A stretch of 22,215 nt of DNA, taken from UHGV virus genome UHGV-0087471; one strand, given 5' to 3'. Under the pieces are notes generated by a model. The model was given only the letters and a program-made list of their open reading frames with translations, was not told the origin of the DNA and did no database searches. Below are positions 847-21,876 of this stretch, in pieces; positions within the stretch are counted from its first letter, which is position 1, and each line of letters begins with the position of its first letter. Source of the DNA: a virus. The position numbers and the translations under genes are program-made.

Positions 847-851
847 AAATA

Positions 852-4194: not shown

Positions 4195-4221
4195 GGCCTG
4201 GTAAAATCCAGGCCATTTTTT
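4195..4221. terminator. Bidirectional intrinsic terminator between convergent genes
   Basis: GGCCTGG-TAAAAT-CCAGGCC hairpin followed by ATTTTTT; sits between + strand gene ending 4185 and - strand gene ending 4220. Confidence 0.5.
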
Positions 4222-4726
4222 ACAGTAAGCCTATTAGGGCACTTGCGCCAGCCCCAACAATGCTGGCAACGGTACTGTTTTCCAGTAACTGCTTTAATAC
4301 TGATTTGGCTTGTACATCCCCCGATTTAGCGACTTTTTCAACCAGTTCAGTGATGCTGATGTTTACCAGCATATGGTTATGCTCACCTATCTGCACTTGA
4401 TCACCACTAATTGAACCAATGTTAAATGTATTACTTTTAGTTGGCGTCATATGTTCATTTCCCGTGATATTTTCAATATAGAGAGTCAACATATTTGGAT
4501 GATTGGTTCCCTGTCTGCGGGTTCCATTGGGAAGCAACTTCATATCTATAATTTTTAGATTTATCTCGTTTTTACCGACACGCTGGATAATGTGTTGACC
4601 AATAGTTACTTCCGGTTCATTTGTATATGGAATTAATACCTTGTTTTCTTTTGCGTTTCTTTTACCTCTGAATGATTCGCCATTAATTATGAAAGTATCA
4701 GGGTATACCATTGCGCTTAAATTCAT
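4220..4726 (-). CDS. Hypothetical cargo protein (168 aa) with hydrophobic C-terminus; candidate accessory/anti-phage gene
   Basis: Only opposite-strand gene inside the satellite; AT-rich by eye relative to flanking satellite genes; C-terminus VASIVGAGASALIGLL looks like a membrane anchor; located between replication and packaging modules. Confidence 0.55.
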   Translation of the reverse strand: MNLSAMVYPDTFIINGESFRGKRNAKENKVLIPYTNEPEVTIGQHIIQRVGKNEINLKIIDMKLLPNGTRRQGTNHPNMLTLYIENITGNEHMTPTKSNTFNIGSISGDQVQIGEHNHMLVNISITELVEKVAKSGDVQAKSVLKQLLENSTVASIVGAGASALIGLL

Positions 4727-5012
4727 GATGCGTCCTTTGTTGTAGTCAGAGACAGCAATAATAGGCCATGGTTTACTTCTTTTGTAAATTATTTGTTCGT
4801 GTTCTTTCGTGGTTGTTCGGTCTGACTGACAGGTGTTTACATACTGATTTTTATGTATATGTTGTAGCGTGGCACTCAGACGTGAGCCGCCACAATGCCG
4901 CCTGACCCCCTGCGCGATGCCGGGTTGATCTGCGAGATGCCGAGAGTGTCGGGCGGCGCTCCCCCCGTGTTGGTTTCACGTCCTGAATCTTAACCAATAC
5001 GAGAAAACCTTC

Positions 5013-6182: not shown

Positions 6183-6192
6183 TCATGAGTAA

Positions 6193-6216
6193 GGAGGAGG
6201 CTGCGGCCTCCTTTTT
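6193..6216 (+). terminator. Intrinsic terminator/attenuator downstream of capsid gene
   Basis: GGAGGC-TGCG-GCCTCC hairpin followed by TTTTT immediately after the capsid stop codon. Confidence 0.45.
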
Positions 6217-6236
6217 CAGCTTTATGGAGTACACCG

Positions 6237-6797
6237 ATGAAAAACACCGATTTTGAAATCCGCACATCTGAACTGACCGCCAGCAATAAAAAGCTGGTGG
6301 GGTATGCCGTTCGCTGGAACAGCCTTTCAGAAATTATCTGGGACGAATTCCGCGAACAGTTCACGCCGGGGGCTTTTGCTGACTATCTGGCGACGGGTAA
6401 TGATGTGCGCTGCCTGTATGAGCATGACTATACCCAACTGCTGGGGCGCACCAAATCCGGCACTCTGGTACTGACTGAGGATAACACCGGGTTACGTTTT
6501 GAACTGACACCGCCGGATACCCAGCTTGGAAAAGATGTGCTTACGCTGGTGGAGCGTGGCGACATTACAGGAATGAGCTTTGGTTTTCGCGCATTATGCG
6601 AGGAGTGGAGTATCGCGCAAAAACCGTATCTGCGTACCGTAACCGCCGCTGAACTCCGTGAAATCACAATAACGTCGATGCCTGCTTATCCAGAATCTGG
6701 CGTGGAGATTGCCCACCGTTCGTTGTTTGCACAGCACCCTGAATTACGTCCGACAGGAAATAATCTTCATCGCTGGTCTGAGCTGGCGGGGTTGTGA
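6237..6797 (+). CDS. Prohead maturation protease, HK97 family (186 aa)
   Basis: Conserved His (LYEHD) and Ser (ITGMSFGF) motifs with spacing typical of HK97 gp4-type proteases; GGAG RBS. Confidence 0.85.
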   Translation: MKNTDFEIRTSELTASNKKLVGYAVRWNSLSEIIWDEFREQFTPGAFADYLATGNDVRCLYEHDYTQLLGRTKSGTLVLTEDNTGLRFELTPPDTQLGKDVLTLVERGDITGMSFGFRALCEEWSIAQKPYLRTVTAAELREITITSMPAYPESGVEIAHRSLFAQHPELRPTGNNLHRWSELAGL

Positions 6798-6798
6798 T

Positions 6799-8013
6799 AT
6801 GTGGTGGCCTTTTAGTCGTAAAAAAAGCGAGCAGCGTAACCTGTCCATTGATGATTTTCTGGCGCTGTCCGGCGTACCGAATACCGGATCCGGAGAATAT
6901 GTTTCTGCCGGGACGGCTGAATCATTGCCTGCAGTGATGAATGCGGTTTCTGTCATCGCTGAGGCGGTGGCCACGATGCCGTGTTATCTGTATCTGGTAC
7001 GTAATGACAAGGGCAGGGAGGCGCGGGAATGGCTGGACAGTCACCCGGTAGATATTCTGCTGAATGAGCAGCCTAATTCGTGCCAGACACCTTACCAGTT
7101 TAAACGCACAATGATGCGTCACTGCCTGCTGAACGGTAACGCCTATGCGGTTATTGAGTGGGGGCAGGACGGGCAGCCAAAATCACTTCATCCTTATGCG
7201 CCGGGGTGTGTTGTACCGGAACGCACAGGCGCACACAAATACCGCTATACCATCACCGAACCCTGTACAGGAACGGTGCGCACGTATTTACAGGAAGAAG
7301 TTCTGCATCTCCGCTATGCCTCGGATGATGGCTTTCTGGGGCGTTCCCCCGTCACGATTTGCCGTGAGGCGCTGGGGCTTGGCCTTGCTCAACAGCGTCA
7401 CGGAGCCAGCATTATGAAAGATGGCATGATGGCGGCAGGGATTATCACGTCAGGCGAATGGCTGGACGGCGTGAAAGGTAAACAGGCATTGGATGCTCTG
7501 GAACGCTACAAGGGGGCGAAAAATGCCGGAAAAACGCCAATCCTTGAAGGGGGCATGGATTACAGGCAACTGGGAATGAGTAACCAGGATGCGGAATGGC
7601 TGGCCTCCCGTCGCTTCTCCATTGAAGACATCGCCCGCATGTTCAACGTATCGCCTATTTTTCTGCAGGAATACAGCAACAGCACCTACAGCAATTTCAG
7701 CGAGGCAAGCCGCGCGTTTCTGACCATGACAATGCGCCCGTGGCTGGCGAACTTCGAACAGCAAATCAAGGCCGCTTTGCTGGTGGCTTCTCCCGTACCT
7801 GGTACCCGTTATCTGGTTGAGTTTGATTCAGCCGATTTATTACGCGCCACACCCACCGAACGTTATGCCACGTATGAGAAAGGGATTAAGAACGGGATCA
7901 TGAATCCGAACGAAGCCCGTGAGCGTGAGGGTATGCCGCCGCGTGAAGGTGGTGATGAGTTCAGCCAGGCATGGAAACAGACTGTGGAAATTAAAGGGAG
8001 AAAAGATGAGTGA
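6799..8013 (+). CDS. Portal protein, HK97 family (404 aa)
   Basis: Size and motifs typical of portal proteins; start set to ATG 6799 just after the protease stop rather than the longest ORF start at 6709. Confidence 0.8.
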   Translation: MWWPFSRKKSEQRNLSIDDFLALSGVPNTGSGEYVSAGTAESLPAVMNAVSVIAEAVATMPCYLYLVRNDKGREAREWLDSHPVDILLNEQPNSCQTPYQFKRTMMRHCLLNGNAYAVIEWGQDGQPKSLHPYAPGCVVPERTGAHKYRYTITEPCTGTVRTYLQEEVLHLRYASDDGFLGRSPVTICREALGLGLAQQRHGASIMKDGMMAAGIITSGEWLDGVKGKQALDALERYKGAKNAGKTPILEGGMDYRQLGMSNQDAEWLASRRFSIEDIARMFNVSPIFLQEYSNSTYSNFSEASRAFLTMTMRPWLANFEQQIKAALLVASPVPGTRYLVEFDSADLLRATPTERYATYEKGIKNGIMNPNEAREREGMPPREGGDEFSQAWKQTVEIKGRKDE

Positions 8014-8308
8014 AGCCAAAATTACACCTGATGAAGTCAGGGCACATCTTCGACTTGATGATGATTTATCCGGTGAAGGCGAACTTCTGAAAATGTATAC
8101 CGATGCGGCGCTGGAAGCCTGCCAGAAGCATATCGGGAAACGTTTTGAAGACGGGCTGGAATTTACCCCGGCAATGCGTGTTGGTTGCCTGATGTACATC
8201 GCTTTCCTGTACGAGAACCGGGAAGCGGTTTCACCAGTGGAGCACTCGGAACTGCCTATGGCTATTTCTGCGCTCTGGTCAGTTTATCGTGACGTAGGGG
8301 TGTACTGA
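8006..8308 (+). CDS. Head-tail connector / DNA-packaging protein, gp6-like (100 aa)
   Basis: N-terminal ITPDEVRAHLRLDDD...E..LLK.Y.DAA.EA pattern typical of gp6-like connectors; AAGGGAG RBS; start ATG 8006 overlaps portal stop. Confidence 0.6.
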   Translation: MSEAKITPDEVRAHLRLDDDLSGEGELLKMYTDAALEACQKHIGKRFEDGLEFTPAMRVGCLMYIAFLYENREAVSPVEHSELPMAISALWSVYRDVGVY

Positions 8309-8748
8309 TGCCGTGGCAACCATTAAGGCGATGCACTGAGCCTGGCTGTAATAAGCGCGTGAAGTCCGGCAAGTGTGAAGAGCACAGGCGGGCTGCATGG
8401 CGTGCAGAGGATGCCAGACGGGGACACCGCCGCGCGCGCGGGTATTCCCGACAGTGGGACAAATACCGCGCCCTGTACCTGAGCAAAAACCCGTTATGCG
8501 TGAGTTGTCTGGCTAAGGGGATTTATACGCCAGCTCTTGTGGTGGATCACATCATTCCCATCAATGGCGGCGGTGATGTTCTCTTCTGGCCTGAGTGGAA
8601 CCACCAGGCATTGTGCCAGACGTGCCACAACCGTAAGACGACACGGGAAGATCCCGCCACGAAAGCGAACCGTAAGGCGGGCATGTATCGCGATCAGGAA
8701 GAACGGGCGGCACACCGTAACGACTGGATGTATGGCGATGATGACTGA
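8308..8748 (+). CDS. HNH endonuclease (terminase-associated, 146 aa)
   Basis: Cys-rich N-terminus (CTEPGCN...C..H) and HNH core (VDHIIPINGGG...NHQALCQTCHNRKT); positioned directly upstream of terS as in HNH-dependent cos packaging systems. Confidence 0.85.
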   Translation: MPWQPLRRCTEPGCNKRVKSGKCEEHRRAAWRAEDARRGHRRARGYSRQWDKYRALYLSKNPLCVSCLAKGIYTPALVVDHIIPINGGGDVLFWPEWNHQALCQTCHNRKTTREDPATKANRKAGMYRDQEERAAHRNDWMYGDDD

Positions 8749-9036
8749 ACAGGAGCAAAACAGGCTGATACGTGGGTTGATAAGGCAGCGTGACACATGG
8801 AAGACACAGGAGACAGGGCACAAAGCCAACAGGACAGGGCGCACAAAACGCACCACAGCGAAGCGATTAACCGACCGTGACCGCGAGGTCATGGAATGTT
8901 TTCGCAATCGCTGGTGAGGCCGTCAGAGGGGGTGGGGGTGGTTTTCAGGACGAAACCGTCCCTGCCGGACACCGACCGCCTCCCCAAATTTTTATGCACG
9001 GGAATTTTTTGAAAAATAATCTGACGAAAAATAAGC

Positions 9037-9393
9037 ATGGCAAGACCACCGAAAGCCCCCGCCTACCTGGATGATATCGCCGTGAAGCAGTGGCGGGAAA
9101 AATCGCGGCAGCTTGCGGAACGGGGAGACCTGACCCCCGCCGACTGGAGCAATCTGGAACTGTATTGCGTCAACTACTCCATTTACCGGAAAGCCGTTGC
9201 AGACCTTGCGGCGCGCGGGTTCAGCATTGTTAACAGTCAGGGCGGCGAGAGCAGAAACCCCGCATTAAGCGCAAAATCCGACGCTGAAAGAGTGATGATA
9301 AAAATGGCCTCCTTGCTCGGTTTTGACCCGATAAGCCGCCGTAAAAATCCACCGGAAACAGAAGAAGAGGACGAGCTTGACCGCCTGGAATAA
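9037..9393 (+). CDS. terS: Terminase small subunit (P27-family-like, 118 aa)
   Basis: Sequence pattern (W...L..G.L...D...L..YC..Y..Y..A...L...G......G....NP) and position immediately upstream of and overlapping the large terminase gene. Confidence 0.75.
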   Translation: MARPPKAPAYLDDIAVKQWREKSRQLAERGDLTPADWSNLELYCVNYSIYRKAVADLAARGFSIVNSQGGESRNPALSAKSDAERVMIKMASLLGFDPISRRKNPPETEEEDELDRLE

Positions 9394-11038
9394 GTACGCA
9401 GAAGACGTAAAAACGGGCAAAATTCCGGCCTGTAAACGGCTGAAACAGGCCGTTAAACGGTACTTTTCGGACCTTGAAAGCCCCCTTTACACGTTCGATC
9501 GTGAGGTTGTGGAGCGGTTTATTGCCTTTTCCAGGGTGTGCGCGCACGTAAAAGGGCCGATGCGTGGCAGACCCATTGAGCTGGAGCCGTGGCAGCAGTT
9601 CGCCTTTGCGTGCATCCTCGGCTTTAAGGTTAAGGCCACCGGACGGCGCAAATACACGAGCGCCTTTATCGAAGTGCCGCGCAAAAATGCGAAATCCACG
9701 ACCGCCGCGATTCTGGCTAACTGGTTTCTGATTATGGAGAACGGTCAGCAGGATATCTACACCGCAGCGGTGAGCCGTGACCAGGCGCGGATCGTCTTTG
9801 ATGATGCGCGTCAGATGTGCCTTTTATCCCGACCGTTACGCAGGCGGGTGAATATTCAGGCGCATAAGGTGATACACCCGAAAACCAACAGCCTGTTAAA
9901 GCCACTGGCAGCAAAAGCGGCAACCATTGAGGGGACAAACCCGAGTCTTGCCATTGTGGATGAATATCACCTGCACCCAGACAACGGGGTTTATTCCGCA
10001 CTTGATATGGGGATGGGCGCACGTCCCGAAGGGCTGTTATTTGCCATTACCACATCGGGCAGTAACGTCGTTTCAGCCTGTAAGCAGCACTATGATTATT
10101 GCTGCCAGATCCTGGACGGCGAAGAGGTCAACGATTCAATTTTTGTACTGATTTACGAACTGGACGACGAAAACGAGGTTGATGATCCGGCGATGTGGAT
10201 AAAGGCTAACCCTAACATCGATGTTTCCGTCGATCGTGAAAAACTGGCCTCAACCATCCAGAAAGCGCGGGGTATTCCGTCGCAATGGGTGGAAATGCTC
10301 ACCAAGCGATTCAATATCTGGTGTCAGGGGGCTACGCCGTGGATGGGTAACGGTGCATGGGCGGAGTGTGCCGGAACGTTCGCGGAGGCGGATTTATACG
10401 GGCAGGAGTGCTACGCGGGGCTGGACTTATCATCAACCAGCGATATTTCCAGCGTGTGCTATGCCTTCCCGGTCGGTAAAAAGATTATGCTGGTTTCCCG
10501 TCACTATCTGCCGGAATTTCAGCTACAGAATCCCGCCAATAAAAACCGCGCCATCTATCGCCAGTGGGTAAAGGCGGGCTGGATACGCACAACACCGGGT
10601 GACTGCATTGATTATGACCGTATCCGTGATGACATCATGGCGGATGCAGAGAATTTCAATATCAGGCTGGTGGGCTTCGATACATGGAACGCCACGCACC
10701 TGAGGACGCAGTTACAGGGCGCAGGATTTGAGGTGGAGCCGTTCCCGCAAACCTACCTCAGATTCAGTCCGGCGGCGAAATCGTTCGAAGTTTTTGTTAA
10801 CCGGAAGGTGATTGTGCATCGTGGTGATCCGGTGCTGGCCTGGTCAATGAGTAATGTTGTGATGCAGAGTGACGCGAACGCCAATATCAAGCCGAACAAG
10901 AAAAAATCATCCAACAAGATAGACCCGAGCGTTGCGGCGCTGATGGCGTTTGGCACATTCCAGGCAGAGCACGAGGACTTTGCATTCGATATGAGCGACA
11001 GCCACAAAGAGCGGCTTGCGGCGTTTGATGGGGTATGA
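9377..11038 (+). CDS. terL: Terminase large subunit (553 aa)
   Basis: Large ORF with terminase-type ATPase N-terminal half and nuclease C-terminal half; appears to start with TTG at 9377 (GAGGA 6 nt upstream), overlapping terS. Confidence 0.9.
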   Translation: MTAWNKYAEDVKTGKIPACKRLKQAVKRYFSDLESPLYTFDREVVERFIAFSRVCAHVKGPMRGRPIELEPWQQFAFACILGFKVKATGRRKYTSAFIEVPRKNAKSTTAAILANWFLIMENGQQDIYTAAVSRDQARIVFDDARQMCLLSRPLRRRVNIQAHKVIHPKTNSLLKPLAAKAATIEGTNPSLAIVDEYHLHPDNGVYSALDMGMGARPEGLLFAITTSGSNVVSACKQHYDYCCQILDGEEVNDSIFVLIYELDDENEVDDPAMWIKANPNIDVSVDREKLASTIQKARGIPSQWVEMLTKRFNIWCQGATPWMGNGAWAECAGTFAEADLYGQECYAGLDLSSTSDISSVCYAFPVGKKIMLVSRHYLPEFQLQNPANKNRAIYRQWVKAGWIRTTPGDCIDYDRIRDDIMADAENFNIRLVGFDTWNATHLRTQLQGAGFEVEPFPQTYLRFSPAAKSFEVFVNRKVIVHRGDPVLAWSMSNVVMQSDANANIKPNKKKSSNKIDPSVAALMAFGTFQAEHEDFAFDMSDSHKERLAAFDGV

Positions 11039-11328
11039 CGAGAATGAGCGAAACCGAACTACTAAAAATAATCCGCCGTGTTACCGGAGCCAGCCAGACA
11101 GCAGACAAACAGGAGGCCACGCAGCCGGACAGCGTGATAGCCGAAAATTACGCGCGTGTGGTGGCTGAGGTGATGCGCCGTGACGGTATTGAGCTTAACG
11201 GCGTGGATATGCGCAACATACGAACCAGAGTCCTTGAGTTGCTGGCATACCGTCGCCGTTCTCAACAACGGAGGGAGAGCGCGAAAAATACTTATCAGTG
11301 GAAGAAGCCGGAACGGTTGCGGCGGTAA
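11035..11328 (+). CDS. Hypothetical protein (97 aa), last gene of packaging module
   Basis: ATG 11035 overlaps terL stop (ATGA); basic C-terminus; no recognisable motif. Confidence 0.4.
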   Translation: MTRMSETELLKIIRRVTGASQTADKQEATQPDSVIAENYARVVAEVMRRDGIELNGVDMRNIRTRVLELLAYRRRSQQRRESAKNTYQWKKPERLRR

Positions 11329-12254
11329 CTTGCAGATATTCCCGATAACGTAAAATTGCGTTGGCTGGCAGAGTGCAAATTTGCACGATGGCCTAACCCA
11401 TTGATTGTTTCGGAAACCTCAATTTGAGGAGGCCGGACAGCGTGACGGAGGGTGACAACCAGTGACACGCCGTGACAAAAAGACGGTTTAACCATCCATT
11501 AAAAATCGACGTGATTTTGTGCTTTCCGTATGAGGTGGCCAGCGTCATTTTTTAGTGAGAAATTCTGGTCAGGGGCGTTGGCTGAATGGTTATTTTATCG
11601 TGCCCATGCACAGGGAGGGGGCGGGTAAAATCTCTGGAGGTGATGCCTGTCAGGACCGCCGCCTGACCCTTCCTCACATCGCCGCAGGTTCGAAAACTTT
11701 TTTTGTGTCAGGTGCGCACGGAATTGATAGATAAAACCTATATTAAAAAATCACGGAAGCCGTGCCATTGCTGGAGCAGTCAAAAATTCCACATCTCACG
11801 GCAGGCAAAAAAAGCGAATTTTGGGCCAGTTGAGGATAAAAAAGGGCTCACTAGTTTTGCACATCCTGGTATCGGGGTCGTCAGCCTCCCGCCAGTAACT
11901 AGGTAACTAATCACGCTGGTGGGCATGATGCCGATGCCGGGATCTCGGTATCGGTTTATCTGTGATCATCCACCAGCTTGATGACAGATAACAGGGAGTC
12001 ATAACGGTTAAAGCGTGTTGATCTTTGTTCGTGGTTGTTCGATATTGTTCGTAAAGCGGTGTAGTTAATGGTGTAGTTAATTTCGCTGTTTTTGACGAGC
12101 TTATCATTTGCAACGCAATGAAAAACAAAGACTAATTAACAAAATGCTATAAATGATAGTTATCTATCATGTGGAGTAGATTGGTCAGGCAAATAAGCTC
12201 TTGTCAGCGGCAGGGCGTTCTGCCGATAACCGTAACCGAAGATGATAACTGACA

Positions 12255-12575
12255 ATGGGTAAAACGAACGACTGGCTGGACTTTGATCAACTGGCGGAAG
12301 AAAAAGTTCGCGACGCGCTAAAACCGCCATCTATGTATAAAGTGATATTAGTCAATGATGATTATACTCCGATGGAGTTTGTTATTGATGTGTTACAAAA
12401 ATTCTTTTCTTATGATGTAGAACGTGCAACGCAATTGATGCTCGCTGTTCACTACCAGGGGAAGGCCATTTGCGGAGTCTTTACCGCTGAGGTTGCAGAA
12501 ACCAAAGTGGCGATGGTGAACAAGTACGCGAGGGAGAATGAGCATCCATTGCTGTGTACGCTAGAAAAAGCCTGA
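12255..12575 (+). CDS. clpS: ATP-dependent Clp protease adaptor ClpS
   Basis: 106-aa translation recognised as E. coli ClpS ([43 protein letters not shown]...). Confidence 0.97.
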
Positions 12576-12605
12576 ATGCAGGCATAAAAATTGGGGGAGG
12601 TGCCT

Positions 12606-14882
12606 ATGCTCAATCAAGAACTGGAACTCAGTTTAAATATGGCTTTCGCCAGAGCGCGCGAGCACCGTCATGAGTTTATGACCGTCGAGCACTTGTTACT
12701 GGCGCTGCTCAGTAACCCATCTGCCCGGGAGGCGCTGGAAGCGTGTTCTGTAGATTTGGTTGCGCTCCGTCAGGAACTGGAAGCCTTTATTGAACAAACC
12801 ACACCCGTTCTGCCTGCCAGTGAAGAGGAGCGCGACACACAGCCGACGTTGAGTTTTCAGCGTGTACTGCAACGTGCGGTCTTCCATGTCCAGTCCTCCG
12901 GTCGCAATGAGGTTACCGGTGCAAACGTTCTGGTCGCTATCTTTAGCGAACAGGAGTCGCAGGCGGCATATCTGTTGCGCAAACATGAAGTCAGCCGTCT
13001 CGATGTGGTGAACTTTATCTCTCATGGCACGCGTAAAGACGAGCCGACACAGTCTTCTGATCCTGGCAGCCAGCCAAACAGCGAAGAACAAGCTGGTGGG
13101 GAGGAACGTATGGAGAATTTCACGACGAACCTGAATCAGCTTGCGCGAGTGGGCGGAATCGACCCACTAATTGGTCGTGAGAAGGAGCTGGAGCGTGCTA
13201 TTCAGGTTCTCTGCCGTCGCCGTAAAAACAACCCGCTGCTGGTGGGGGAGTCTGGTGTCGGTAAAACCGCGATTGCGGAGGGGCTTGCATGGCGAATTGT
13301 TCAGGGCGATGTGCCGGAAGTGATGGCTGACTGTACGATTTACTCTCTCGATATCGGTTCCCTGTTAGCGGGCACAAAATATCGCGGCGACTTTGAAAAA
13401 CGTTTTAAAGCGTTGCTCAAGCAGCTGGAGCAGGACACTAACAGCATCCTGTTTATTGATGAGATCCACACCATTATCGGTGCGGGTGCAGCGTCTGGTG
13501 GCCAGGTCGATGCGGCTAACCTGATTAAACCGTTGCTCTCCAGCGGTAAAATCCGCGTAATTGGTTCGACAACCTATCAGGAGTTCAGCAACATTTTCGA
13601 GAAAGACCGTGCTCTGGCGCGTCGCTTCCAGAAAATTGATATTACTGAACCGTCAATCGAAGAAACTGTTCAAATCATCAATGGCCTGAAACCGAAGTAT
13701 GAAGCGCACCACGACGTGCGTTATACCGCAAAAGCGGTGCGTGCGGCGGTAGAGCTGGCGGTGAAATACATTAACGATCGTCATCTGCCGGATAAAGCGA
13801 TTGATGTTATCGACGAAGCGGGCGCTCGCGCACGTCTGATGCCGGTAAGCAAACGCAAGAAAACCGTTAATGTGGCGGATATTGAATCCGTGGTGGCCCG
13901 TATTGCACGCATTCCAGAGAAGAGTGTTTCTCAGAGTGACCGCGATACCCTGAAAAACCTCGGCGATCGCCTGAAAATGCTGGTCTTCGGTCAGGATAAA
14001 GCCATTGAGGCGCTGACTGAAGCCATTAAGATGGCGCGTGCAGGTTTAGGTCACGAACATAAACCGGTCGGTTCGTTCCTGTTTGCCGGCCCTACTGGGG
14101 TCGGGAAAACAGAGGTGACGGTACAGCTTTCGAAAGCGTTGGGCATTGAGCTTCTGCGCTTTGATATGTCCGAGTATATGGAACGCCATACCGTCAGCCG
14201 TCTGATTGGTGCGCCTCCGGGATACGTTGGTTTTGATCAGGGCGGTTTGCTGACTGATGCGGTCATCAAGCATCCACATGCGGTGCTGCTGCTGGACGAA
14301 ATCGAGAAAGCGCACCCGGACGTGTTCAATATTCTGTTGCAGGTGATGGATAACGGTACGCTGACCGATAACAACGGACGCAAAGCGGACTTCCGTAACG
14401 TGGTGCTGGTGATGACCACTAATGCCGGGGTACGGGAAACTGAGCGCAAATCCATTGGTCTTATCCACCAGGATAACAGCACCGATGCGATGGAAGAGAT
14501 CAAGAAGATCTTTACACCGGAATTCCGTAACCGTCTCGACAACATTATCTGGTTCGATCATCTGTCAACCGACGTGATCCATCAGGTGGTGGATAAATTC
14601 ATCGTCGAGTTGCAGGTTCAGTTGGATCAGAAAGGTGTTTCTCTGGAAGTGAGCCAGGAAGCGCGTAACTGGCTGGCCGAGAAAGGTTACGACCGGGCAA
14701 TGGGCGCACGTCCGATGGCGCGTGTCATCCAGGACAACCTGAAAAAACCGCTCGCCAACGAACTGCTGTTTGGTTCGCTGGTGGACGGCGGTCAGGTCAC
14801 CGTCGCGCTGGATAAAGAGAAAAATGAGCTGACTTACGGATTCCAGAGTGCACAAAAGCACAAGGCGGAAGCAGCGCATTAA
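12606..14882 (+). CDS. clpA: ATP-dependent Clp protease ATP-binding subunit ClpA
   Basis: 758-aa translation recognised as ClpA (two AAA+ modules; Walker A GESGVGKT and GPTGVGKT). Start set to ATG 12606 with GGGGGAGG RBS rather than upstream TTG 12591. Confidence 0.97.
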
Positions 14883-15094
14883 TCTGATTGTCTGGTAGGT
14901 TGGTGAAGTCCGTAATCTCGTCAGGGGTTACGGACTTTTTATTTATGGGGGGAGGAGGTTCAGACCCTTTTTTTGATGATGATGGTAAGTTATTGATAAT
15001 TAGTGCTGCGGGTAGGTAAGGATAAAAAAGGGTGGCAGCAGGAGATTGAGATGGTTTTGCTTTATTAACAACGGGCTAAACGTGTAGTATTTGA

Positions 15095-15182
15095 GTTCAC
15101 TGCCGTACAGGCAGCTTAGAAATTGCCGCGGATCCTGTCTGCCAATAATGACAAGTTCACTGCCGTACAGGCAGATAAAATG
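15095..15182 (+). CRISPR. Minimal orphan type I-F CRISPR array (2 repeats, 1 spacer)
   Basis: Repeat 1 GTTCACTGCCGTACAGGCAGCTTAGAAA (15095..15122) matches the canonical I-F repeat; 32-bp spacer TTGCCGCGGATCCTGTCTGCCAATAATGACAA (15123..15154); repeat 2 (15155..15182) degenerate at its 3' end. No cas genes in window. Confidence 0.8.
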
Positions 15183-15184
15183 CG

Positions 15185-15212
15185 AAAAAAAAGCCCGTAC
15201 TTTCGTACGAGC
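15185..15212 (-). terminator. Intrinsic terminator of serW
   Basis: On the minus strand, GCUCGUAC-GAAA-GUACGGGC hairpin followed by U8, 14 nt downstream of the tRNA 3' end. Confidence 0.55.
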
Positions 15213-15225
15213 TCTTCTTTAAATA

Positions 15226-15313
15226 TGGCGGTGAGGGGGGGATTCGAACCCCCGATACGTTGCCGTATACACACTTTCCAGGCGTGCTCCTTCAGCCACT
15301 CGGACACCTCACC
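15226..15313 (-). tRNA. serW: tRNA-Ser (anticodon GGA)
   Basis: 88-nt sequence GGTGAGGTGTCCGAGTGGCTGAAGGAGCACGCCTGGAAAGTGTG...GGTTCGAATCCCCCCCTCACCGCCA on minus strand; long variable arm, encoded CCA; clpA-serW gap (344 bp) matches my recollection of E. coli K-12. Confidence 0.95.
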
Positions 15314-15356
15314 AAATTGTTTTTTTGCCTGACCTCATGGGGGGCAACGGGGCGCT

Positions 15357-15385
15357 ACTATAGGGAGTTGGAATAAAACGGTCAA
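15357..15385 (-). promoter_or_regulatory. Putative sigma70 promoter of serW
   Basis: On minus strand TTGACC (-35, 15385..15380), 17-nt spacer, TATAGT (-10, 15362..15357), about 40 nt upstream of the mature tRNA 5' end. Confidence 0.4.
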
Positions 15386-15678
15386 GAAGAATTTTTATGA
15401 TAATTATTGTTTGCTCATACTGTAAACAAGTTGTGCAGTATATCTACATCTGATGCGCCGCGCGATAAATAAGCCGCAATCCGTGAGATAAATGGACACA
15501 GTGCGGCTTTTCAGATACGGAAAAGGAATTACAGATTATCAGTCGTAAGCAACCCACGCTTACTGGCAAGGATGGTTTACAATGCTGAAAGCGCCTCCCG
15601 GCAATACCGCCAATCATCACTCAAACAGAAAAAATTATTGCTCATGGTTCACTCCGGTAATGAATCGTTTTACAGGCG

Positions 15679-16272
15679 TCATTCGGTCATGGAAAGATTG
15701 CTGATTTCGGTAATCCCGGCAATTTCCTCGCTGACGGATTTCAGTTCGATTTCCAGCTTGGTGCGTTCGTTGACCAGCGCAGCTACGGTCTTACGGCGGT
15801 CTGCCAGTGACGGAAGGTTGTCATTGCCCCACGCCACGCTTTTATCCTTTTTGAGCGCTTCGGTCAGGCGGGTGGCGACCACATCCGGGAAGAAAAAGCA
15901 TAACTTACGCATAACCGTCATCCCGACATCAGCCAGGGGGACATTCCCGCTCAGTCCCACCAGACGGAACAGACCAGAAATATCACCATTCTCATTTTCC
16001 AGATTACCCCAGCGTTCGGCGTTCCCTTCACTGCCGGAACCGTTGCAAAGAGCAAGCTTGAATGACTGATATTCTTCCTGCCCGAATCGCTCAATATATT
16101 CAGGAATAAAGGAACAGTAATCATTAAGCGATAATGGCATATCCTGTAATGTGGTTATTTCACTGTTAATCTCTCCAATTCGGCGGGAGAGCTTTTCTTT
16201 CTGCTCATTCAGGGAGGCAAGATTATTTTTAACGGCGTTCAGTGCTTCGATAAGGGAAATAACAGGTTTCAT
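15679..16272 (-). CDS. Hypothetical coiled-coil protein (197 aa), scaffold-like
   Basis: Start ATG 16272 with GGAG RBS, 1 nt after stop of upstream gene; N- and C-terminal heptad-like segments (LIEALNAVKNNLASLNEQKEKLSRRIGEINSEITTLQ; KTVAALVNERTKLEIELKSVSEEIAGI). Function inferred only from composition. Confidence 0.55.
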   Translation of the reverse strand: MKPVISLIEALNAVKNNLASLNEQKEKLSRRIGEINSEITTLQDMPLSLNDYCSFIPEYIERFGQEEYQSFKLALCNGSGSEGNAERWGNLENENGDISGLFRLVGLSGNVPLADVGMTVMRKLCFFFPDVVATRLTEALKKDKSVAWGNDNLPSLADRRKTVAALVNERTKLEIELKSVSEEIAGITEISNLSMTE

Positions 16273-16273
16273 T

Positions 16274-16888
16274 TTAATAACTCCAGATGAAAGGCGTGGT
16301 GAGGGCGAGCGCTTCAGAATAGGAGACATTGCAGGCTGCACTTACGTCCTTTATTAAAAGGTGCTGTGCTGCCCTCTGACTGTCTGCTATGCCGTCAAAC
16401 TCTGAAAAATGAACGTGTGATTCATTGTGATAAAAGCAAACCGGGTAACAGCTTTCCATAAATTCTACCTGCGCCAGTCCCTTTACTGCTGGAGGCTGTG
16501 AGCCGAGAAAACCGATATGCTGAAGATACCAGGCACCGATTCCTGCCGGGTTGTTCGCTTCGCCGGGTCTATAAAATGCCGCAGACACTTTCCTGTAACG
16601 CCCTGCGCGTACCAGTCCCAGCAGGGTTTCATCAGGCTTAACCAGCGCGAAAAGCCTGCCGTTTTTACTTATCAGCCCAGTTGTTTCACCATAAGATGGG
16701 CTGTTGCTGGCCGGATGTCCAATACACAGCGGCGCACCATAACCCGCACGATGATAGCCGTTATAGGCTGCCGCCATGTTGTCGATATCCTCGTCGGAAA
16801 AGGCAATTTCCTGCCCAGCCATCGTGATATGCGTTCCCGCCCGGAATATCTCGATAGTTTTCCAGTTGCCAATATCGATATCTTTCAT
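16274..16888 (-). CDS. Hypothetical protein (204 aa); weak resemblance to phage prohead proteases (HK97 / Mu gpI-like)
   Basis: Start codon overlaps stop of upstream Mor-like gene. By-eye motif similarity to the satellite's own HK97 protease: His-containing CIGHP, then GLISKNGRLFALVKPDETLLGLV...KVSAAFYR paralleling GTLVLTEDNTGLRFELTPPDTQLG...TGMSFGFR. Unverified. Confidence 0.5.
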   Translation of the reverse strand: MKDIDIGNWKTIEIFRAGTHITMAGQEIAFSDEDIDNMAAAYNGYHRAGYGAPLCIGHPASNSPSYGETTGLISKNGRLFALVKPDETLLGLVRAGRYRKVSAAFYRPGEANNPAGIGAWYLQHIGFLGSQPPAVKGLAQVEFMESCYPVCFYHNESHVHFSEFDGIADSQRAAQHLLIKDVSAACNVSYSEALALTTPFIWSY

Positions 16889-16889
16889 T

Positions 16890-17423
16890 TTAAATTACCC
16901 CATATTTCGCATCGCGCTGTATTTTATTTTTCTTGCGTTCGGCGGCTATAATCTGATAAATACACTGAATGGAACGCTTGTATTTTTTTGATAGTTCAAA
17001 AATAGAGATACCCTGATAAAAATCAGCCAGTATTTTTGAGTTCCTGTCGAAAGTGTTTTTTGATGCGCCCATAGGGATATATATATTCCCCCTGAAAAAT
17101 GTATTCCTGAGACATTCAGTGATGGCAGGAGAAAGTTTTTCGGCTTGCGAACAGAGGTAAGGTATGGTTCCTAATGTCTGCTCAATAGATTCAGTCAGCT
17201 CCTGTAGGAAGCGAACTGCCTTAGGTGCTCTTTCTCGGTGTTCAGCCATATACCCCTGGCAGCCACCAAGGTTATCAGAGATACCCAACACAATATGATT
17301 AGCCGCACTGCAGGACTGTTGCCGTGAATACCCTTTGTTGATCAGAAACACTTCTATAGCATCGCCCATTGCCCCCAAAGTATCGGATGAAGCATACAAT
17401 CCTTCTCTTGTAATCATAATCAC
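16890..17423 (-). CDS. Mor/C-family transcriptional activator-like protein (177 aa)
   Basis: C-terminal region GNIYIPMG...FDRNSKILADFYQGISIFELSKKYKRSIQCIYQIIAAERKK resembles the Mu Mor motif (G.VYIP.G ... DF.G.N..EL...Y......Y.I) with a C-terminal HTH; identification from remembered family signature, not a search. Confidence 0.5.
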   Translation of the reverse strand: MIMITREGLYASSDTLGAMGDAIEVFLINKGYSRQQSCSAANHIVLGISDNLGGCQGYMAEHRERAPKAVRFLQELTESIEQTLGTIPYLCSQAEKLSPAITECLRNTFFRGNIYIPMGASKNTFDRNSKILADFYQGISIFELSKKYKRSIQCIYQIIAAERKKNKIQRDAKYGVI

Positions 17424-17657
17424 ACCTCGTCAACGATAAATATGCGCACATAAAGCCTTTATAAAGCTTTATGAGGTGCATTACTGGTGTCATTCCATGA
17501 TGCACACCACCAACAACCAAAAACGCCTTACAGAGCATTTCAATGTGTGTTATTAATGTGGATTAAGAATATGGTTTTGGGGCGAGAATGTTTTTTAATG
17601 TACTTTAGATATGACGAAGCCCCTCAAAGGAGGGGCGAGGCGGAAAACTATTTATAA

Positions 17658-17936
17658 CTATTCCTTACTCTCCTGATCAAGACGATTACCTATCAGGTTA
17701 ATCATTGCCATTGCATCAGATAGCAGGATACTGTTAACAAGTGCTAAGGGCGTCTGTGTTGATTTATCATCAACGGCAACAGAAAGTTCATCATTCAGGC
17801 GACGAACGGCCTCAAGACGGCTAAAGGCGGCTTCCCATATTTCTGTACTCGGGGCATCAGCATTAACAAACAAAACATCGTAAGACGTTCCCTGAGACTC
17901 ATGAGGACAGGCTATGAAATTAGCAGTAGCTTTCAT
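17658..17936 (-). CDS. Hypothetical acidic protein (92 aa)
   Basis: ORF whose start overlaps the stop of the upstream gene (ATGA at 17933..17936); no recognisable motif. Confidence 0.45.
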   Translation of the reverse strand: MKATANFIACPHESQGTSYDVLFVNADAPSTEIWEAAFSRLEAVRRLNDELSVAVDDKSTQTPLALVNSILLSDAMAMINLIGNRLDQESKE

Positions 17937-18412
17937 TTTGCAGTCCTCCGGTTAATTATAAATTTATTATAAATTTCATAACTTGCGGCATTCAGTCCTG
18001 GACTGTATTTATCTGCCAGTGAACAGGCAATGAATTCTTCAATCGATTTAGTCAGTATATCAAGCTCAGTTGTTCCGGAATAACGCAAGGCCACTCGAAA
18101 TAATTCTCGGCAGTATGTTTTTTTATGGTCAATATTTTGTAACTGCTGTTGCGGTATATCACGACGTTCAAATATATTAACAAATGCATTAAGCGGGAAG
18201 CTATGATTTGCCTGCGGATATTGCTCATAGGAAAACACCACAGTATTACCGTTGCATTCTTTAACAATTGCATTCATACCGCTGTTAATTTCAATATACC
18301 ACTCTCCTATACATGGAGGATTGATAGCTTCGCTCTGTGCCTTGATTAAAGGTAAGCGGATAGTATCCACTTGGTTTGTTGCAACTGAATCGTTAGACTT
18401 GTCGTTAGCCAT
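17933..18412 (-). CDS. Hypothetical protein (159 aa)
   Basis: Start ATG 18412 with AGGA RBS about 9 nt upstream (longest ORF extends to 18430); first gene of the minus-strand cluster; no recognisable motif. Confidence 0.45.
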   Translation of the reverse strand: MANDKSNDSVATNQVDTIRLPLIKAQSEAINPPCIGEWYIEINSGMNAIVKECNGNTVVFSYEQYPQANHSFPLNAFVNIFERRDIPQQQLQNIDHKKTYCRELFRVALRYSGTTELDILTKSIEEFIACSLADKYSPGLNAASYEIYNKFIINRRTAK

Positions 18413-18600
18413 GACTGTTATCCTACACATAACGGTTTTTGGTTAGGCCATAGCAAGTGCTCGCAACATTTGTTATGGCCGTTTCTTTGGCCCTTTCCCT
18501 GTGATAAGGTATAGACCTAACAAGTAAACACTAAGCCATAGGTCTATACATGTCAACTATCTTGAGAGATAAAAGCCAAAAAGGGGCAGGGAAAGCCCCC

Positions 18601-18741
18601 ATGTTTAACGTTAGAATATCGCCAGATTTGAAAGAACAGTTTGAAATACAAGCAAAAAAAGAAGGTGTTAGCTTGGGAAACTGGCTCAAGGAACTTGGCA
18701 GGGCGGAACTAAAACGTAAGGGGATCGAGCCGAAAGGGTGA
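18601..18741 (+). CDS. Small ribbon-helix-helix (Arc/MetJ/CopG-like) regulator (46 aa)
   Basis: MFNVRISPDLKEQFEIQAKKEGVSLGNWLKELGRAEL fits a beta-strand/helix/Gly/helix RHH pattern; divergent from the minus-strand cluster; ATG 18601 preferred (GGGA upstream) over ORF start 18550. Confidence 0.4.
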   Translation: MFNVRISPDLKEQFEIQAKKEGVSLGNWLKELGRAELKRKGIEPKG

Positions 18742-18767
18742 TGTTTTAGTCTCCCTGTGTTTGATTA

Positions 18768-19601
18768 AAAGCGAAATCGCTTTCACATTTAAAGTTCAAG
18801 ATAGCCAATGCCATCACCAAAGCGGACAGCGCTGTCCGCTTTTCATCAGTAAAAACCACATATTTACGCCAAAACGCTCAACGTTGAGCGCTACGTACCC
18901 CGGCAAAAGCGCAAGCGTCTGCGCTTTTGGTAACAAGCAATCAGCATTTAAATGCGGACAACGTTGACCGTTTTGAGGAATCAATGTCGGCTGAGCAAAA
19001 ACGACAACGTTGTCGTTTTTAAAACGGCAAGCGCTTACCGTTTCAGATTATCGAGGCGGTAAGAGTTTACCGTTTGGTGTCAATTATGTTCAATAAGCGA
19101 AAACGTTTTCGCATTTTCTCACCTAACGCGGCAAACCTTCTTTGTCCTAGATGGAAAAACGACAGCGCTGTCGTTTCTAATCCGGGGTTCCAAACCGCTC
19201 AGCGCTGAGCGGTTCTGTGGCTTTCTTACAATCCAAATCCGCCAACGTTGGCAGATTTGCAAATATCACATATGATTGATGGTCCCGAATCACAAATGTC
19301 CCAGCGCGGGGATATTTCAAGTAGTTCAATCATTTCATGCGCTGGCAGTCATCTCCAAAACTGCGAACGCCTGCCCTTTCAGTACAGTTTGGTAATATAT
19401 ATTGGTAAGCTTTACTTGTAGAAATATAAAACTCCAAAAGCGCCAGCGCTGGCGCTTTGTAAGGCCAGCAATATCATTCCCAGCGCTGGAATACTAAAAG
19501 GCGGATTCCTGCATCTTAATTTGAGATGGAATCTCATGGCAATCCAGTGTTAACGTAGGGTTTTAGCCAGTACTCACGACTTGAATATGCCAGCGCTGGC
19601 A
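18768..19601. repeat. Array of about 17 short perfect or near-perfect palindromes (14-24 bp) centred on AGCGCT or AACGTT
   Basis: Perfect palindromes at 18819..18842, 18875..18890, 18997..19020, 19097..19112, 19157..19176, 19193..19214, 19437..19458, 19588..19601; imperfect ones between them; one more of the same family at 21106..21129 beyond the IS903 copy. Confidence 0.6.
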
Positions 19602-19823
19602 CATTTGAAGTCTGGTAACATCAATAATCTAATGACACCTGATGTAATTTTGAACCCTGAACTGGAATCAACCCCAAATTTAATGGCAACAGCTATCAGC
19701 CAGATTACTGATGAACGTGACCTGCTGAACCAATTACTTGACCAAGCACAGATGGCCGATGCATTCGAGCAATTTTCCCGAACGGTTCGGACTTCTAAAC
19801 TGGCTTTTGTGAAGGAAAACAAG

Positions 19824-20880
19824 GGCTTTGTTGAATAAATCAGATTTCGGGTAAGTCTCCCCCGTAGCGGGTTGTGTTTTCAGGCAATACGCACGCTTTC
19901 AGGCATACCTGCTTTCGTCATTTTGTTCAGCGCTCGTACCAGGGCCATAGCCTCTGCAACCTGACCATCGTAGTCACGCAGTGTCAGTGAACCTCCGAAC
20001 AGCTGTTTTACCCGGTACATCGCCGTTTCCGCTATCGAGCGACGGTTATAATCTGTTGTCCATTTCCACCGCGCATTACTCCCGGTCAGCCGCTGATTCG
20101 CAACAGCACGGTTACGGTCTGCATATTCACCGGGCCAGTAACCCGCGCCTTTTCGGGGCGGGATAAGCGCGCTGATTTTCTTACGCCGCAGTTCATCGTG
20201 ACAGAGCCGGGTGTCGTAAGCGCCGTCTGCCGATGCTGCCCTGATTTTTCTGTGAGTCTGCCGGATAAGACCCGGGAAGGCTTCTGAGTCCGTCACATTG
20301 TTCAGCGACAGGTCTGCACAGATGATTTCATGTGTTTTGCTGTCAACTGCCAGATGCAACTTTCGCCATATACGACGGCGTTCTTTGCCGTGTTTTTTGA
20401 CTTTCCATTCGCCTTCACCAAAGACCTTCAGCCCGGTGGAATCAATCACCAGATGCGCGATTTCACCTCGGGTGAACGTTTTGAAACTGACATTAACCGA
20501 CTTTGCGCGCTTGCTGACACTGGTGTAATCCGGGCAGCGCAACGGAACATTCATCAGTGTAAAAATGGAATCAATAAAACCCTGTGCAGCCCGCAGGGTC
20601 AACCTGAACACGCGTTTAATGACCAGAACGGTGGTGATGGCGAGATCAGAATAGCGCTGAGGTCTTCCCCGTGATGAAGGCGTTGCCGACTCATACCAGG
20701 CCTGAATAGCTTCATCATCCAGCCAGAAAGTTATGGAGCCACGGTTGATGAGGGCTTTATTGTAGGTGGGCCAGTTGGTGATTTTGAACTTTTGCTTTGC
20801 CACGGAACGGTCTGCGTTGTCGGGAAGATGCGTGATCTGATCCTTCAACTCAGCAAAAGTTCGATTTATTCAACAAAGCC
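19824..20880 (-). mobile_element. IS903 (IS5 family), complete 1057-bp copy
   Basis: 18-bp terminal inverted repeats GGCTTTGTTGAATAAATC at 19824..19841 and 20863..20880; ends match remembered IS903 sequence; 9-bp direct target duplication GAAAACAAG at 19815..19823 and 20881..20889. Confidence 0.92.
19880..20803 (-). CDS. IS903 transposase (DDE, IS5 family; 307 aa if started at GTG 20803)
   Basis: Translation matches IS903 transposase as I recall it (VAKQKFKITNW...). The longest ORF extends 15 codons further to 20848; the GTG start is chosen to match the commonly annotated 307-aa product. Confidence 0.85.
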   Translation of the reverse strand: MAKQKFKITNWPTYNKALINRGSITFWLDDEAIQAWYESATPSSRGRPQRYSDLAITTVLVIKRVFRLTLRAAQGFIDSIFTLMNVPLRCPDYTSVSKRAKSVNVSFKTFTRGEIAHLVIDSTGLKVFGEGEWKVKKHGKERRRIWRKLHLAVDSKTHEIICADLSLNNVTDSEAFPGLIRQTHRKIRAASADGAYDTRLCHDELRRKKISALIPPRKGAGYWPGEYADRNRAVANQRLTGSNARWKWTTDYNRRSIAETAMYRVKQLFGGSLTLRDYDGQVAEAMALVRALNKMTKAGMPESVRIA

Positions 20881-21876
20881 GAAAACAAGCTGTATCGCAA
20901 TCTAAAGGGTAAGAAGACACCGAACGGTTCGGAGTTTTCGGGTACATGGGATGAATTTTGTAATGTTCTTGGAATATCCGTTGATAAGGCAGATTTGGAT
21001 ATTGCCAACCTAAGAACCTTCGGCGAAAAAGCCCTCGAATCCATGCCTCGTATGGGGAGCGGCTATCGTGAACTTCGTCAGTTCCGCCGACTACAAGACT
21101 ATCAGAAAAGCGCCAACGTTGGCGCTTTTGGGAAAAGCCAAACAACCCTGCTATTCCGCTTCATGAAACACTTGAGGCATCACAAAACCAAATAGCATTA
21201 CACCAGTAACAGATCATTTCTCAGTTCGGAGATGGCCTGCTGTTTGATCTGTTGTGTAACGAAGAAAAAATTCGCAGTCATTTATCACGCAGCGCTGAAG
21301 AAATGCTGGAAGCTGGACAAGCGCTGGTTGTATCGCGTAATTGTTTGCTGCATGAAGAGTGGCTAAATTTTCTTTCCCCTTTAGATTTAGAGTGCTGTGT
21401 TGCTCAACGCATAGCACAAGCAGCCGTATAATTTTCAAATGTGTCGATGTCGACGTATTTGATCCATACTGTTGGCACCAAATTTAAATCATAGATGCGG
21501 GGCTGCGCGATATTGAGATTAAATCTGTCACAAAAATATTGGCCTGCGGCACGCGGATACTGGGAGCAAAGGAAGTTCGGGTGTGATAACCCAGACTGCC
21601 ATCACGTAAAGTACCTGACTAACTCATGCGGAATCATCCTTTTTGTTATGAACCCTGTTTCAGCAAACTCGATTCTAAGTTGCCAGGAAGGATGATTTTA
21701 ATGTCCCACTTATCTTTCATATAGCGGAAAAGAATTTCAGTTCTGTTCACCAGATCCCACGTTATCCCACTCCAATTCGTTATTTATCTCACGGATCACC
21801 ATTCATTTATCTCACGTCCCTTCATACATCGAGACAAGTTACGGACTTATACTTCTAAAGTACTCCATACATATCA

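Follow-up and report, generated by a model that had tools for sequence, protein, structure and literature searches.

The 22,215-nucleotide stretch considered here (the window, catalogued as UHGV virus genome UHGV-0087471) is an Escherichia coli chromosome segment of the sequence type 131 (ST131) kind, and between the tRNA-Ser gene serW and infA it carries a dense array of palindromes that differ in their arms but share a central hexamer. To judge from sequence comparisons, this array probably constitutes a multi-specificity set of putative binding sites for the DUF3102 proteins of helper phages, and it is borne on a small element, a candidate satellite of BcepMu-like transposable phages, that is most likely mobilised by them as a satellite or mini-phage. 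The DUF3102-like protein that the element itself encodes is possibly an additional predicted binder.

A palindrome family shared with phage DUF3102 genes

When a palindrome is defined by at least seven matched arm pairs with no more than one mismatch, 13 are found within positions 18768-19601, and 11 of these possess the family core [AG][AG]CG[CT][CT] (ARCGYT), whereas dinucleotide-preserving shuffles (n=300) yield on average 0.5 palindromes and 0.04 with the core. By the same definition positions 1-15450 hold five palindromes, none of the ARCGYT family. The hexamer AGCGCT reaches a density of 9.6 per kb inside 18768-19601 against 0.06 per kb in the remaining window, and perfect palindromes of at least 16 bp are confined to the array region and to a single outlier at 21106-21129. 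The initial annotation, which had described a dense cluster of about 17 palindromes with a shared core and flanking A- and T-tracts, was correct in these respects, as the array amounts to some 16-17 units once degenerate ones are included; it had also rightly placed the array directly after the gene for a ribbon-helix-helix (RHH) protein, and a further family member beyond the IS903 copy inside a disrupted open reading frame (ORF). Its description of the stretch as mostly non-coding holds in general, except that the unit at 19584-19605 overlaps the start of a disrupted DUF3102-like ORF (19581-19823 plus 20890-21195) and the outlier lies within it. Likewise, the stems do vary as had been stated, but not arbitrarily, since the arms sort into about ten recurring types. 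The units are separated by spacers of 24-100 bp; pairs -8 to -1 are nearly always symmetric, and mismatches cluster in the outer pairs -12 to -9.

The same family occurs in BcepMu-like phages. Escherichia phage PhiKM (Bcepmuvirus) possesses exactly one family palindrome, CCAAAACGCTCAGCGCTGAGCGTTTTGG, which lies within its DUF3102 gene and encodes PKRSALSVLG. The comparison was extended to 63 IMG/VR loci whose DUF3102 proteins are 40-100% identical to that of PhiKM, with 17-20 kb sampled per phage. A family-core palindrome is present somewhere in 56 of the 63 loci, and in about 50 it occupies the equivalent position of the DUF3102 gene (nucleotides ~343-352, or ~244-289 where the N-terminus is shorter); in five loci no in-gene palindrome was detected, in two others the gene bears a different palindrome at another position, and other family palindromes are almost absent from the sampled sequence. 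The architecture is (C)AAAA-N5-6-ARCGYT-N5-6-TTTT(G) throughout. Among the 27 distinct 24-mers that the phage sites comprise, the arms are lineage-specific, while the centre and the outer A/T tracts are common to the lineages. DUF3102 is the third gene of the phage early operon, which runs Ner-like, winged helix-turn-helix, DUF3102, p105, transposase and ExeA-type ATPase, and the position of the array, after the first gene of a rightward unit, corresponds to that of the DUF3102 gene. Moreover, the outlier at 21106-21129 sits at a motif homologous to the in-gene palindrome of the phages and is an exact 24-mer match to one phage locus (L127).

Some side observations on these genes may be recorded here. 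In two distant GC-rich lineages of Burkholderia-type phages, family palindromes are found just upstream of the DUF3102 start instead of within the gene (at -159 and -119 in L129, and at -104 in L130). Two other phages (L071 and L086) have early regions in which the Ner-like first gene is 73% identical and the winged helix-turn-helix gene 99% identical; the Ner-like gene may be a second variable module, an immunity module that evolves apart from the DUF3102-site module. A 79-aa hypothetical protein recorded in RefSeq for E. coli AW1.7 (L002, 20028-20267) reads through five palindromes of the array carried by that strain. Its peptides KAQALALL and KRQALAVL equal the phage DUF3102 motif; since open frames are not conserved between copies of the element, this ORF is probably no gene and the record spurious.

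The arms can also be related to the phage proteins themselves. In an alignment of phage DUF3102 sequences the hypervariable segment coincides with helices 2 and 3 of a helix-turn-helix (HTH), just upstream of the palindrome, and across the 63 loci the HTH residues that precede a conserved MMQA motif map one-to-one to the arm type, although helix and site are tightly linked. The pairs are APQ-VARR with arm (A/G)CGCTC, EPR-VARR with CGGAC, AYR-TSVR with TGTGCC, HVR-AAQR with GCGAC, SKR-TAQV with GCGCA, TAR(M/L) with CGGCA, IAQK with TGCGAA, TAHR with GTCCC and TAQR with GCGCC. The pairing persists even between phages with transposases of only 49-82% identity. The centre variant (AGCGCT, AACGTT, GACGTT or GGCGCT) does not follow the helix. 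Four different alleles occur among phages with 97-99% identical transposases; conversely, in the TARx/CGGCA class the transposases are 35-82% identical to the PhiKM reference and the flanks differ at 38% of sites, while the 24-nt palindrome is identical. Within a helix class, palindromes differ at 0-0.11 sites per nucleotide and flanks at 0.08-0.38, and the palindrome is at least 2.6-fold better conserved than its flanks in four of five classes; the TSVR class shows no such difference (0.071 versus 0.079).

The array resembles this phage repertoire far more closely than chance would allow. The 50 distinct 24-mers collected from copies of the element lie on average 3.2 mismatches in 24 nt from the nearest phage site, as against 7.2 +/- 0.25 for arm-shuffled controls of the same composition, and none of 2000 shuffles reaches the observed value. 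Three of the 24-mers are identical to phage sites; at most one mismatch separates 9 from such a site, and at most two separate 17. Even asymmetries recur in both array and phage sites: the CGGAC type has GAC...GAC, and the GCGCA type has the centre GGCGCT. The arm types present in the window are CGCTC, CGGAC, GCGCA, (A/G)CGAC, CGGCA, GCGAA, TGCC/GGCAC, GTCCC-like and GCGCC, and with these the array appears to cover essentially all of the phage classes seen. Two units (18997-19020 and 19155-19178) closely resemble the site found in the resident AAQR-class prophage of ZH063, a genome that also harbours the array.

A predicted structure provides a further clue to what the DUF3102 proteins might do. 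A model of the element's own DUF3102-like protein has a ParB/KorB-type fold with an HTH, and this protein aligns with phage DUF3102 at 34% identity over 128 aa (BLASTP) and shares with it the profile family phrog_1748; the extension of a ParB-like fold to the phage proteins, which would make them site-specific DNA binders, rests on that alignment and that family. ParB-like behaviour beyond site binding is not to be assumed, because an N-terminal ParB CTPase domain is lacking in the DUF3102 proteins, for which Pfam gives either DUF3102 or nothing.

Several considerations weigh against the view of the array as a set of sites for helper proteins. Many units are 2-4 nt from the nearest known phage site and some are decayed, and not every unit need be functional. 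Helix and palindrome are only ~30-50 nt apart, so their covariation could in part be due to linkage in a single hypervariable cassette. The fold was modelled for the satellite homologue rather than for a phage protein, with an overall predicted local distance difference test (pLDDT) score of 66.7, a sequence-profile search of the PDB with the DUF3102-type protein gave no match, and the missing CTPase domain counts on the same side. Finally, the copy in the window is degraded and may be inactive, and the benefit that a satellite would draw from the array is conjecture.

Conservation of the array and competing explanations

The array is, as far as alignments can tell, a conserved and selected feature of the element. 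Intact copies without exception carry 8-13 palindromes of the family within 0.6-0.9 kb downstream of the RHH gene, and a seven-way alignment gives a pairwise identity of 92.4% for the palindromes and 68.8% for the spacers, with invariant columns in the palindromes and diverged spacers between them. Orthologous units swap the centre between AGCGCT and AACGTT on both sides together, and compensatory changes are seen in the arms (CATGCC/GGCATG, TCTGCC/GGCAGA, TATGCC/GGCACA). The units GCGGAC, GCGCA, CCGCTC and GCGCC are conserved in nearly all copies, and whole units have been gained, lost or have decayed in particular lineages of the element. Conservation in homologous loci, which the initial annotation had named as a test, thus speaks for the array, as does the second such test: the palindromes are not a generic repeat scattered genome-wide, since distant blastn detected the array in just 32 of 5426 E. 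coli genomes. Wherever the context of a match was read (one ST131 match, AW1.7 and MS115-1), it fell in the element.

This pattern bears on the notion that the units are for the most part non-functional relics of illegitimate or palindrome-stimulated recombination with the DUF3102 genes of helpers. The exact 24-mers and common asymmetries do point to copying from phage genes, units do come and go between copies, and the array has at its distal end a second, truncated DUF3102-type ORF that stops just past its own palindrome. Nevertheless, relics would not be expected to show 92% identity in the palindromes against 69% in the spacers, to keep their symmetry by double changes, or to be present as an array in every intact copy in several genera. 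In addition, the idea that the units are fragments of DUF3102 genes was rejected on account of their flanks, which have no homology to DUF3102 coding sequence and agree with it in no more than a C preceding the A-tract and a G following the T-tract. Relics are therefore an improbable explanation of the array as a whole.

It could also be supposed that the palindromes bind only the element's own proteins, DUF3102-like or RHH, in an autoregulatory or centromere-like role that is independent of any helper. The element does encode a DUF3102-like protein with a modelled ParB/KorB-type fold, the RHH gene adjoins the array, and the presence of some units in nearly all copies would suit a resident binder. 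Moreover, a palindrome was looked for in the element's own DUF3102-like gene and none was found, so the site of this protein must be elsewhere. One dimeric protein, though, has no need of about ten arm types, let alone of arm types that match the allelic classes of the phage proteins, and the HTH helix of the satellite protein (EAYN, PAIN or DARK) is unlike every phage class. As for the RHH protein, two inverted repeats unrelated to the ARCGYT family, located in the divergent promoter region (18446-18549), are better candidate operators for it, or for another regulator. An exclusively internal function is unlikely on these grounds, and the protein-binding array proposed in the initial annotation survives as the favoured option with a different predicted binder, DUF3102 of BcepMu-like phages in place of the adjacent RHH protein.

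A quite different class of explanation invokes the folding of the units as RNA or single-stranded DNA hairpins, be it as stacked bidirectional terminators, as a structured RNA or as processing sites. GC-rich stems with A/T flanks in a mostly non-coding stretch downstream of RHH can certainly fold, and one unit, at 19097-19112, passes an intrinsic-terminator scan. It is the only one of ~16 to do so, because in the family units the T-tract is consumed by the stem; the scan returns 4 terminator-like sites versus 1.5 +/- 1.4 in shuffles, which was judged not to be above expectation. The symmetry runs through the centre, where G..C changes to A..T together, although a 4-nt loop would not require it. 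The array has no match in Rfam 15 at E <= 1, and mismatches read on the sense strand show no excess of G.U (12, versus 35 A.C). Furthermore, the homologous phage site is located in the middle of a gene and of an operon, immediately ahead of the transposase, a position in which strong termination would do harm. Hairpin function is accordingly a decidedly remote prospect, and the stacked terminators and the multi-hairpin RNA suggested in the initial annotation are both poorly supported.

Its remaining suggestion, a hairpin-targeted insertion hotspot, fares no better. Diverse palindromes with a conserved core superficially resemble attC sites or repetitive extragenic palindromic (REP) elements, and with an IS903 nearby one might consider recombination hairpins or insertion targets of the attC, REP or IS200 type. 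The IS903 copy, though, is inserted outside any palindrome, Pfam and PHROGs profile searches of the element revealed no integrase, REP-associated tyrosine transposase (RAYT) or Y1 transposase, and the would-be 'cassettes' measure only 24-100 bp, too short for attC cassettes (the attC box consensus was not formally scanned). The array sequence is present at one or two places per genome rather than dispersed, and the window contains no family member outside the element, so the family is not genome-wide; here the initial annotation was right to set the palindromes apart from REP, enterobacterial repetitive intergenic consensus (ERIC) and attC elements. This last explanation has next to nothing in its favour. 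Two further ideas, that AGCGCT and AACGTT are restriction sites and that the array is a set of LacI/GalR-type operator decoys, were dropped once the link to DUF3102 appeared.

The carrier element and its presumed helpers

The element, delimited by pairwise BLAST and inspection of its ends, measures 7.6-8.0 kb. It begins with TGAT(C/G)C(A/G)CCGCGCGATAAA... and ends with ...TTATCTCA(C/T)GTC...TCA, and perfect 6-bp target duplications flank it at seven different sites (TACATC, AGTGAA, ACTCAT, ATTGCA, GTAAAA, CCACGG and GCGATT). In intact copies one unit comprises, in order, a tape-measure protein of 827 aa, the 197-aa protein, the 204-aa protein (homologous to the N-terminal third of a head maturation protease), Mor/C, a 96-aa protein and a DUF3102-like protein of 245 aa; the divergent unit consists of RHH, the array and a 114-aa protein related to Mu gp27/TerS over no more than its first ~55 residues. 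PhiKM has a tape-measure protein with 71% identity to that of the element. A transposase is absent from the intact element by Pfam and PHROGs profile searches, and since both transposon ends are common to BcepMu-like prophages, the element is viewed as helper-dependent and non-autonomous. It is not a simple deletion derivative of a phage, because the TerS and tape-measure genes are co-oriented in the phage but opposed in the element.

The copy in the window (Table 1) has lost its tape-measure gene by a ~2.4-kb internal deletion (window 15586-15590), and IS903 splits the 182-aa ORF that holds the outlying palindrome; given this deletion and this insertion it is probably defunct.

Table 1. Positions in the window of the element, its palindromes and its genes.
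Feature	Position	Strand	Remarks
Whole non-autonomous BcepMu-type element (satellite candidate)	15451..21824		TG...CA ends; degraded copy
Left 6-bp target-site duplication	15445..15450		TACATC; identical hexamer on both sides
Tail-side end	15451..15586		GTGAGATAAAT repeat and 3' remnant of the tape-measure gene
Element-specific 197-aa protein	15679..16272	-	no family match
204-aa homologue of the N-terminal part of a phage head maturation protease	16274..16888	-	phrog_976, E 2e-45, profile 32-173 of 415
Mor/C-family transcription activator	16890..17417	-	PF08765
Element's own DUF3102-related protein	17933..18430	-	shortened variant of 159-165 aa; 243-247 aa in intact copies
Divergent promoter region	18446..18549		two unrelated inverted repeats, 18446-18480 and 18509-18549; not ARCGYT family
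RHH (Arc/HicB-like) protein	18550..18741	+	first gene of rightward unit
Palindrome array	18768..19605		~16 units; sequence reading and palindrome scans
Array units 1-4	18768-18783, 18819-18842, 18873-18892, 18904-18929		first and fourth degenerate
Array units 5-8	18955-18970, 18997-19020, 19022-19043, 19057-19072		eighth degenerate
Array units 9-12	19095-19114, 19155-19178, 19193-19214, 19234-19259		
Array units 13-16	19298-19315, 19437-19458, 19477-19493, 19584-19605		thirteenth and fifteenth degenerate
Second DUF3102-type ORF, 5' part	19581..19823	+	N-terminal half, phrog_4623; cut by IS903
IS903 (IS5 family)	19824..20880	-	9-bp duplication GAAAACAAG at 19815-19823 and 20881-20889
Disrupted DUF3102-type ORF, 3' part	20890..21195	+	
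Extra palindrome	21106..21129		AAAAGCGCCAACGTTGGCGCTTTT; in the IS903-disrupted DUF3102-type ORF, encodes KSANVGAF
Early-side (Mor-side) end	21695..21824		two TTATCTCA repeats, ending ...TCA
Right 6-bp target-site duplication	21825..21830		TACATC

Some features of the element's genes deserve mention in their own right. The satellite tape measure of E. coli AW1.7 (L002, 14142-16625) has 827 aa versus 983 aa in the helper-type prophage of EC958, a difference that could give satellite particles a different tail length, and the N-terminal protease part (16274-16888) and the TerS-N fusion (L002, 21379-21723) are candidate factors for capsid-size or packaging redirection. A weak match to the R1162-like plasmid antisense RNA (Rfam RF00043) at 18405-18481 on the minus strand (31.7 bits versus a gathering score of 55, E 0.016) overlaps the inverted repeat at 18446-18480 and is probably due to chance.

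Positions 17500-19850 of the window are 100% identical in ZH063 and about 20 other genomes, and divergent copies, in which the array is 72-82% identical, occupy unrelated sites: E. coli AW1.7 has one within ynbC, MS115-1 one between dacD and sbmC, and a Citrobacter IncF plasmid one in its leading region; the last is the one true copy in the plasmid collection, where the other matches are to IS903 ends. More copies were found in Intestinirhabdus, Tenebrionibacter, Erwinia, a metagenome-assembled genome and IMG/VR contigs, and no near-identical DNA was found in the phage collection. The architecture is kept across lineages that are 72-93% identical and belong to several genera. Because a scan of the genome collection with the 197-aa protein returned only four species representatives, the wider distribution is taken from protein database matches, by which the element occurs in E. 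coli, Citrobacter, Salmonella, Yersinia, Enterobacter, Erwinia and related genera. A 4.4-kb derivative in Tenebrionibacter intestinalis (L064) has intact ends and a target duplication and is without both the array and the tape-measure gene; the ends alone thus suffice for insertion.

That BcepMu-like phages are the helpers is suggested first of all by the ends. The Mor-side end of the element matches that of the BcepMu-like prophage of EC958. Its tail-side end (~82 bp) is 78-82% identical to sequence in further viral contigs from IMG/VR; several of these measure 35-50 kb, and at least one has tape-measure homology ~7 kb from the end. ZH063 contains a remnant of the window-type element together with a full BcepMu-like prophage in ssuB, and the first 20 nt of the window element equal the terminal 20 nt of that prophage at its tail-side end. 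Such prophages are common, being present in 642 of 5426 complete E. coli genomes (~12%), the pandemic ST131 lineage included. Furthermore, one IMG/VR contig of 7,799 bp (IMGVR_UViG_3300029165_000015; L049/L066) corresponds to the element from its first to its last base, which would be expected if heterogeneous DNA, stemming either from numerous insertion sites or from host ends packaged in the manner of Mu, flanks the element in the sample. The co-resident ZH063 prophage and this exact contig are circumstantial evidence of mobilisation and packaging by a helper.

Two further observations concern the prophages and the neighbourhood. The BcepMu-like prophage adjoins ycaL in EC958 and JJ1886 but lies inside ssuB in ZH063; as its site differs within ST131, it has transposed or been independently acquired there. 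Apart from the element, positions 1-11400 of the window form a phage-like island upstream of cspD/clpS, not at this place in ZH063, with genes for a DUF5906 primase-like protein, large terminase, portal, HK97-type protease and major capsid protein and no tail genes among the listed feature names. Across 40% of the query, the island is 87% identical to a 32.6-kb record from the plasmid collection, and it has the look of a capsid-forming satellite of the phage-inducible chromosomal island (PICI) type.

A possible mechanism and the relation to known systems

The comparisons above suggest how the array might work. Dimers of DUF3102 would bind the palindrome, with specificity set by the arms and with the centre and A/T tracts common to all sites, so that the early-expressed DUF3102 of any helper allele would find a cognate site on the satellite array. 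Two outcomes of binding can be envisaged, of which the first is ranked higher: binding might recruit a helper cis-function for transposition-replication, or sense the onset of helper early expression; alternatively, the array might act as a decoy that titrates the helper protein. One may go a step further and picture, rather tentatively, an arms race in which phages keep switching their DUF3102-palindrome specificity and the satellite gathers a 'key ring' of the site alleles in circulation. The DUF3102-palindrome pair would then serve the phage in replicative transposition, genome self-immunity or control of the early operon, and the key ring would let the satellite hijack or titrate any helper.

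If this is true, satellites of transposable phages would have their first example in this element, and its array would be the first known multi-allelic set of cis-sites for helper exploitation; to our knowledge, no counterpart of such an array has been described among satellites. A literature search on the function of DUF3102, on palindromes in BcepMu and on satellites of Mu-like or BcepMu-like phages, in which many papers in subscription journals were not covered, retrieved nothing relevant, and the element appears to represent an undescribed family of mobile elements riding on transposable phages. A concrete function can now be proposed for the uncharacterised DUF3102, that of a predicted site-specific DNA binder of the ParB/KorB fold with a site inside its own gene, and the natural series of helices and operators could yield a DNA-recognition code or orthogonal repressor-operator pairs. 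Should helper dependence hold, the array would exemplify a new satellite strategy against helper diversity and offer a handle on the cis-acting element that BcepMu-type phages need besides their ends.

Among known systems the functionally closest are ParB-parS, KorB-OB of plasmid RK2 and SopB-sopC, which the array resembles in its palindromic sites of at least ~13-16 bp and, on the strength of the satellite model, in a ParB-type HTH. In those systems, unlike here, the units of a set do not differ in sequence so as to each match the allele of another phage's protein, and their context is the partition of plasmids or chromosomes rather than a transposing phage and its satellite. Nor is this a ParABS system, since Pfam searches found no ParA gene in the element and the DUF3102 proteins have no ParB N-terminal CTPase (ParBc) domain. 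A second parallel is the O protein of phage lambda: the iterons of the lambda origin lie within the O gene, and lambdoid phages have type-specific pairs of initiator and origin. By analogy, the phage palindrome may be viewed as a cis-site inside the gene of its binder, shortly after the coding sequence for the DNA-binding domain, with protein and site diversifying together. The differences are that BcepMu-like phages replicate by transposition, that a single palindrome takes the place of four iterons and an AT-rich region, and that the fold is ParB-like.

With respect to the carrier, the P4-like satellites, PICIs (including the Staphylococcus aureus pathogenicity islands, SaPIs), capsid-forming PICIs (cfPICIs) and PICI-like elements (PLEs) are likewise small, lack a full set of virion genes and reside together with a potential helper; as in satellites, morphogenesis and regulatory genes of the helper are represented in the present element by homologues or fragments (tape measure, protease fragment, TerS N-terminus and Mor). 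Their defining features are nonetheless absent: Pfam and PHROGs searches of an intact copy found no replication or primase module and no marker genes of P4, PICI, cfPICI or PLE, and there is no integrase. Instead of integrating, the element would move by DDE transposition, with ends in common with its presumed helper and 6-bp duplications at random sites. In this respect it is closer to mini-Mu, which also combines both phage ends with the lack of a transposase and depends on the helper enzyme in trans, but it departs from mini-Mu in the inversion of TerS-N relative to the tape measure, in genes of its own (the 197-aa protein and RHH) and in an architecture that is stable across lineages. The features that it does have are those of a BcepMu-type element, namely TG...CA termini, repeated subterminal motifs in common with the phages and a duplication fixed at 6 bp in seven insertions.

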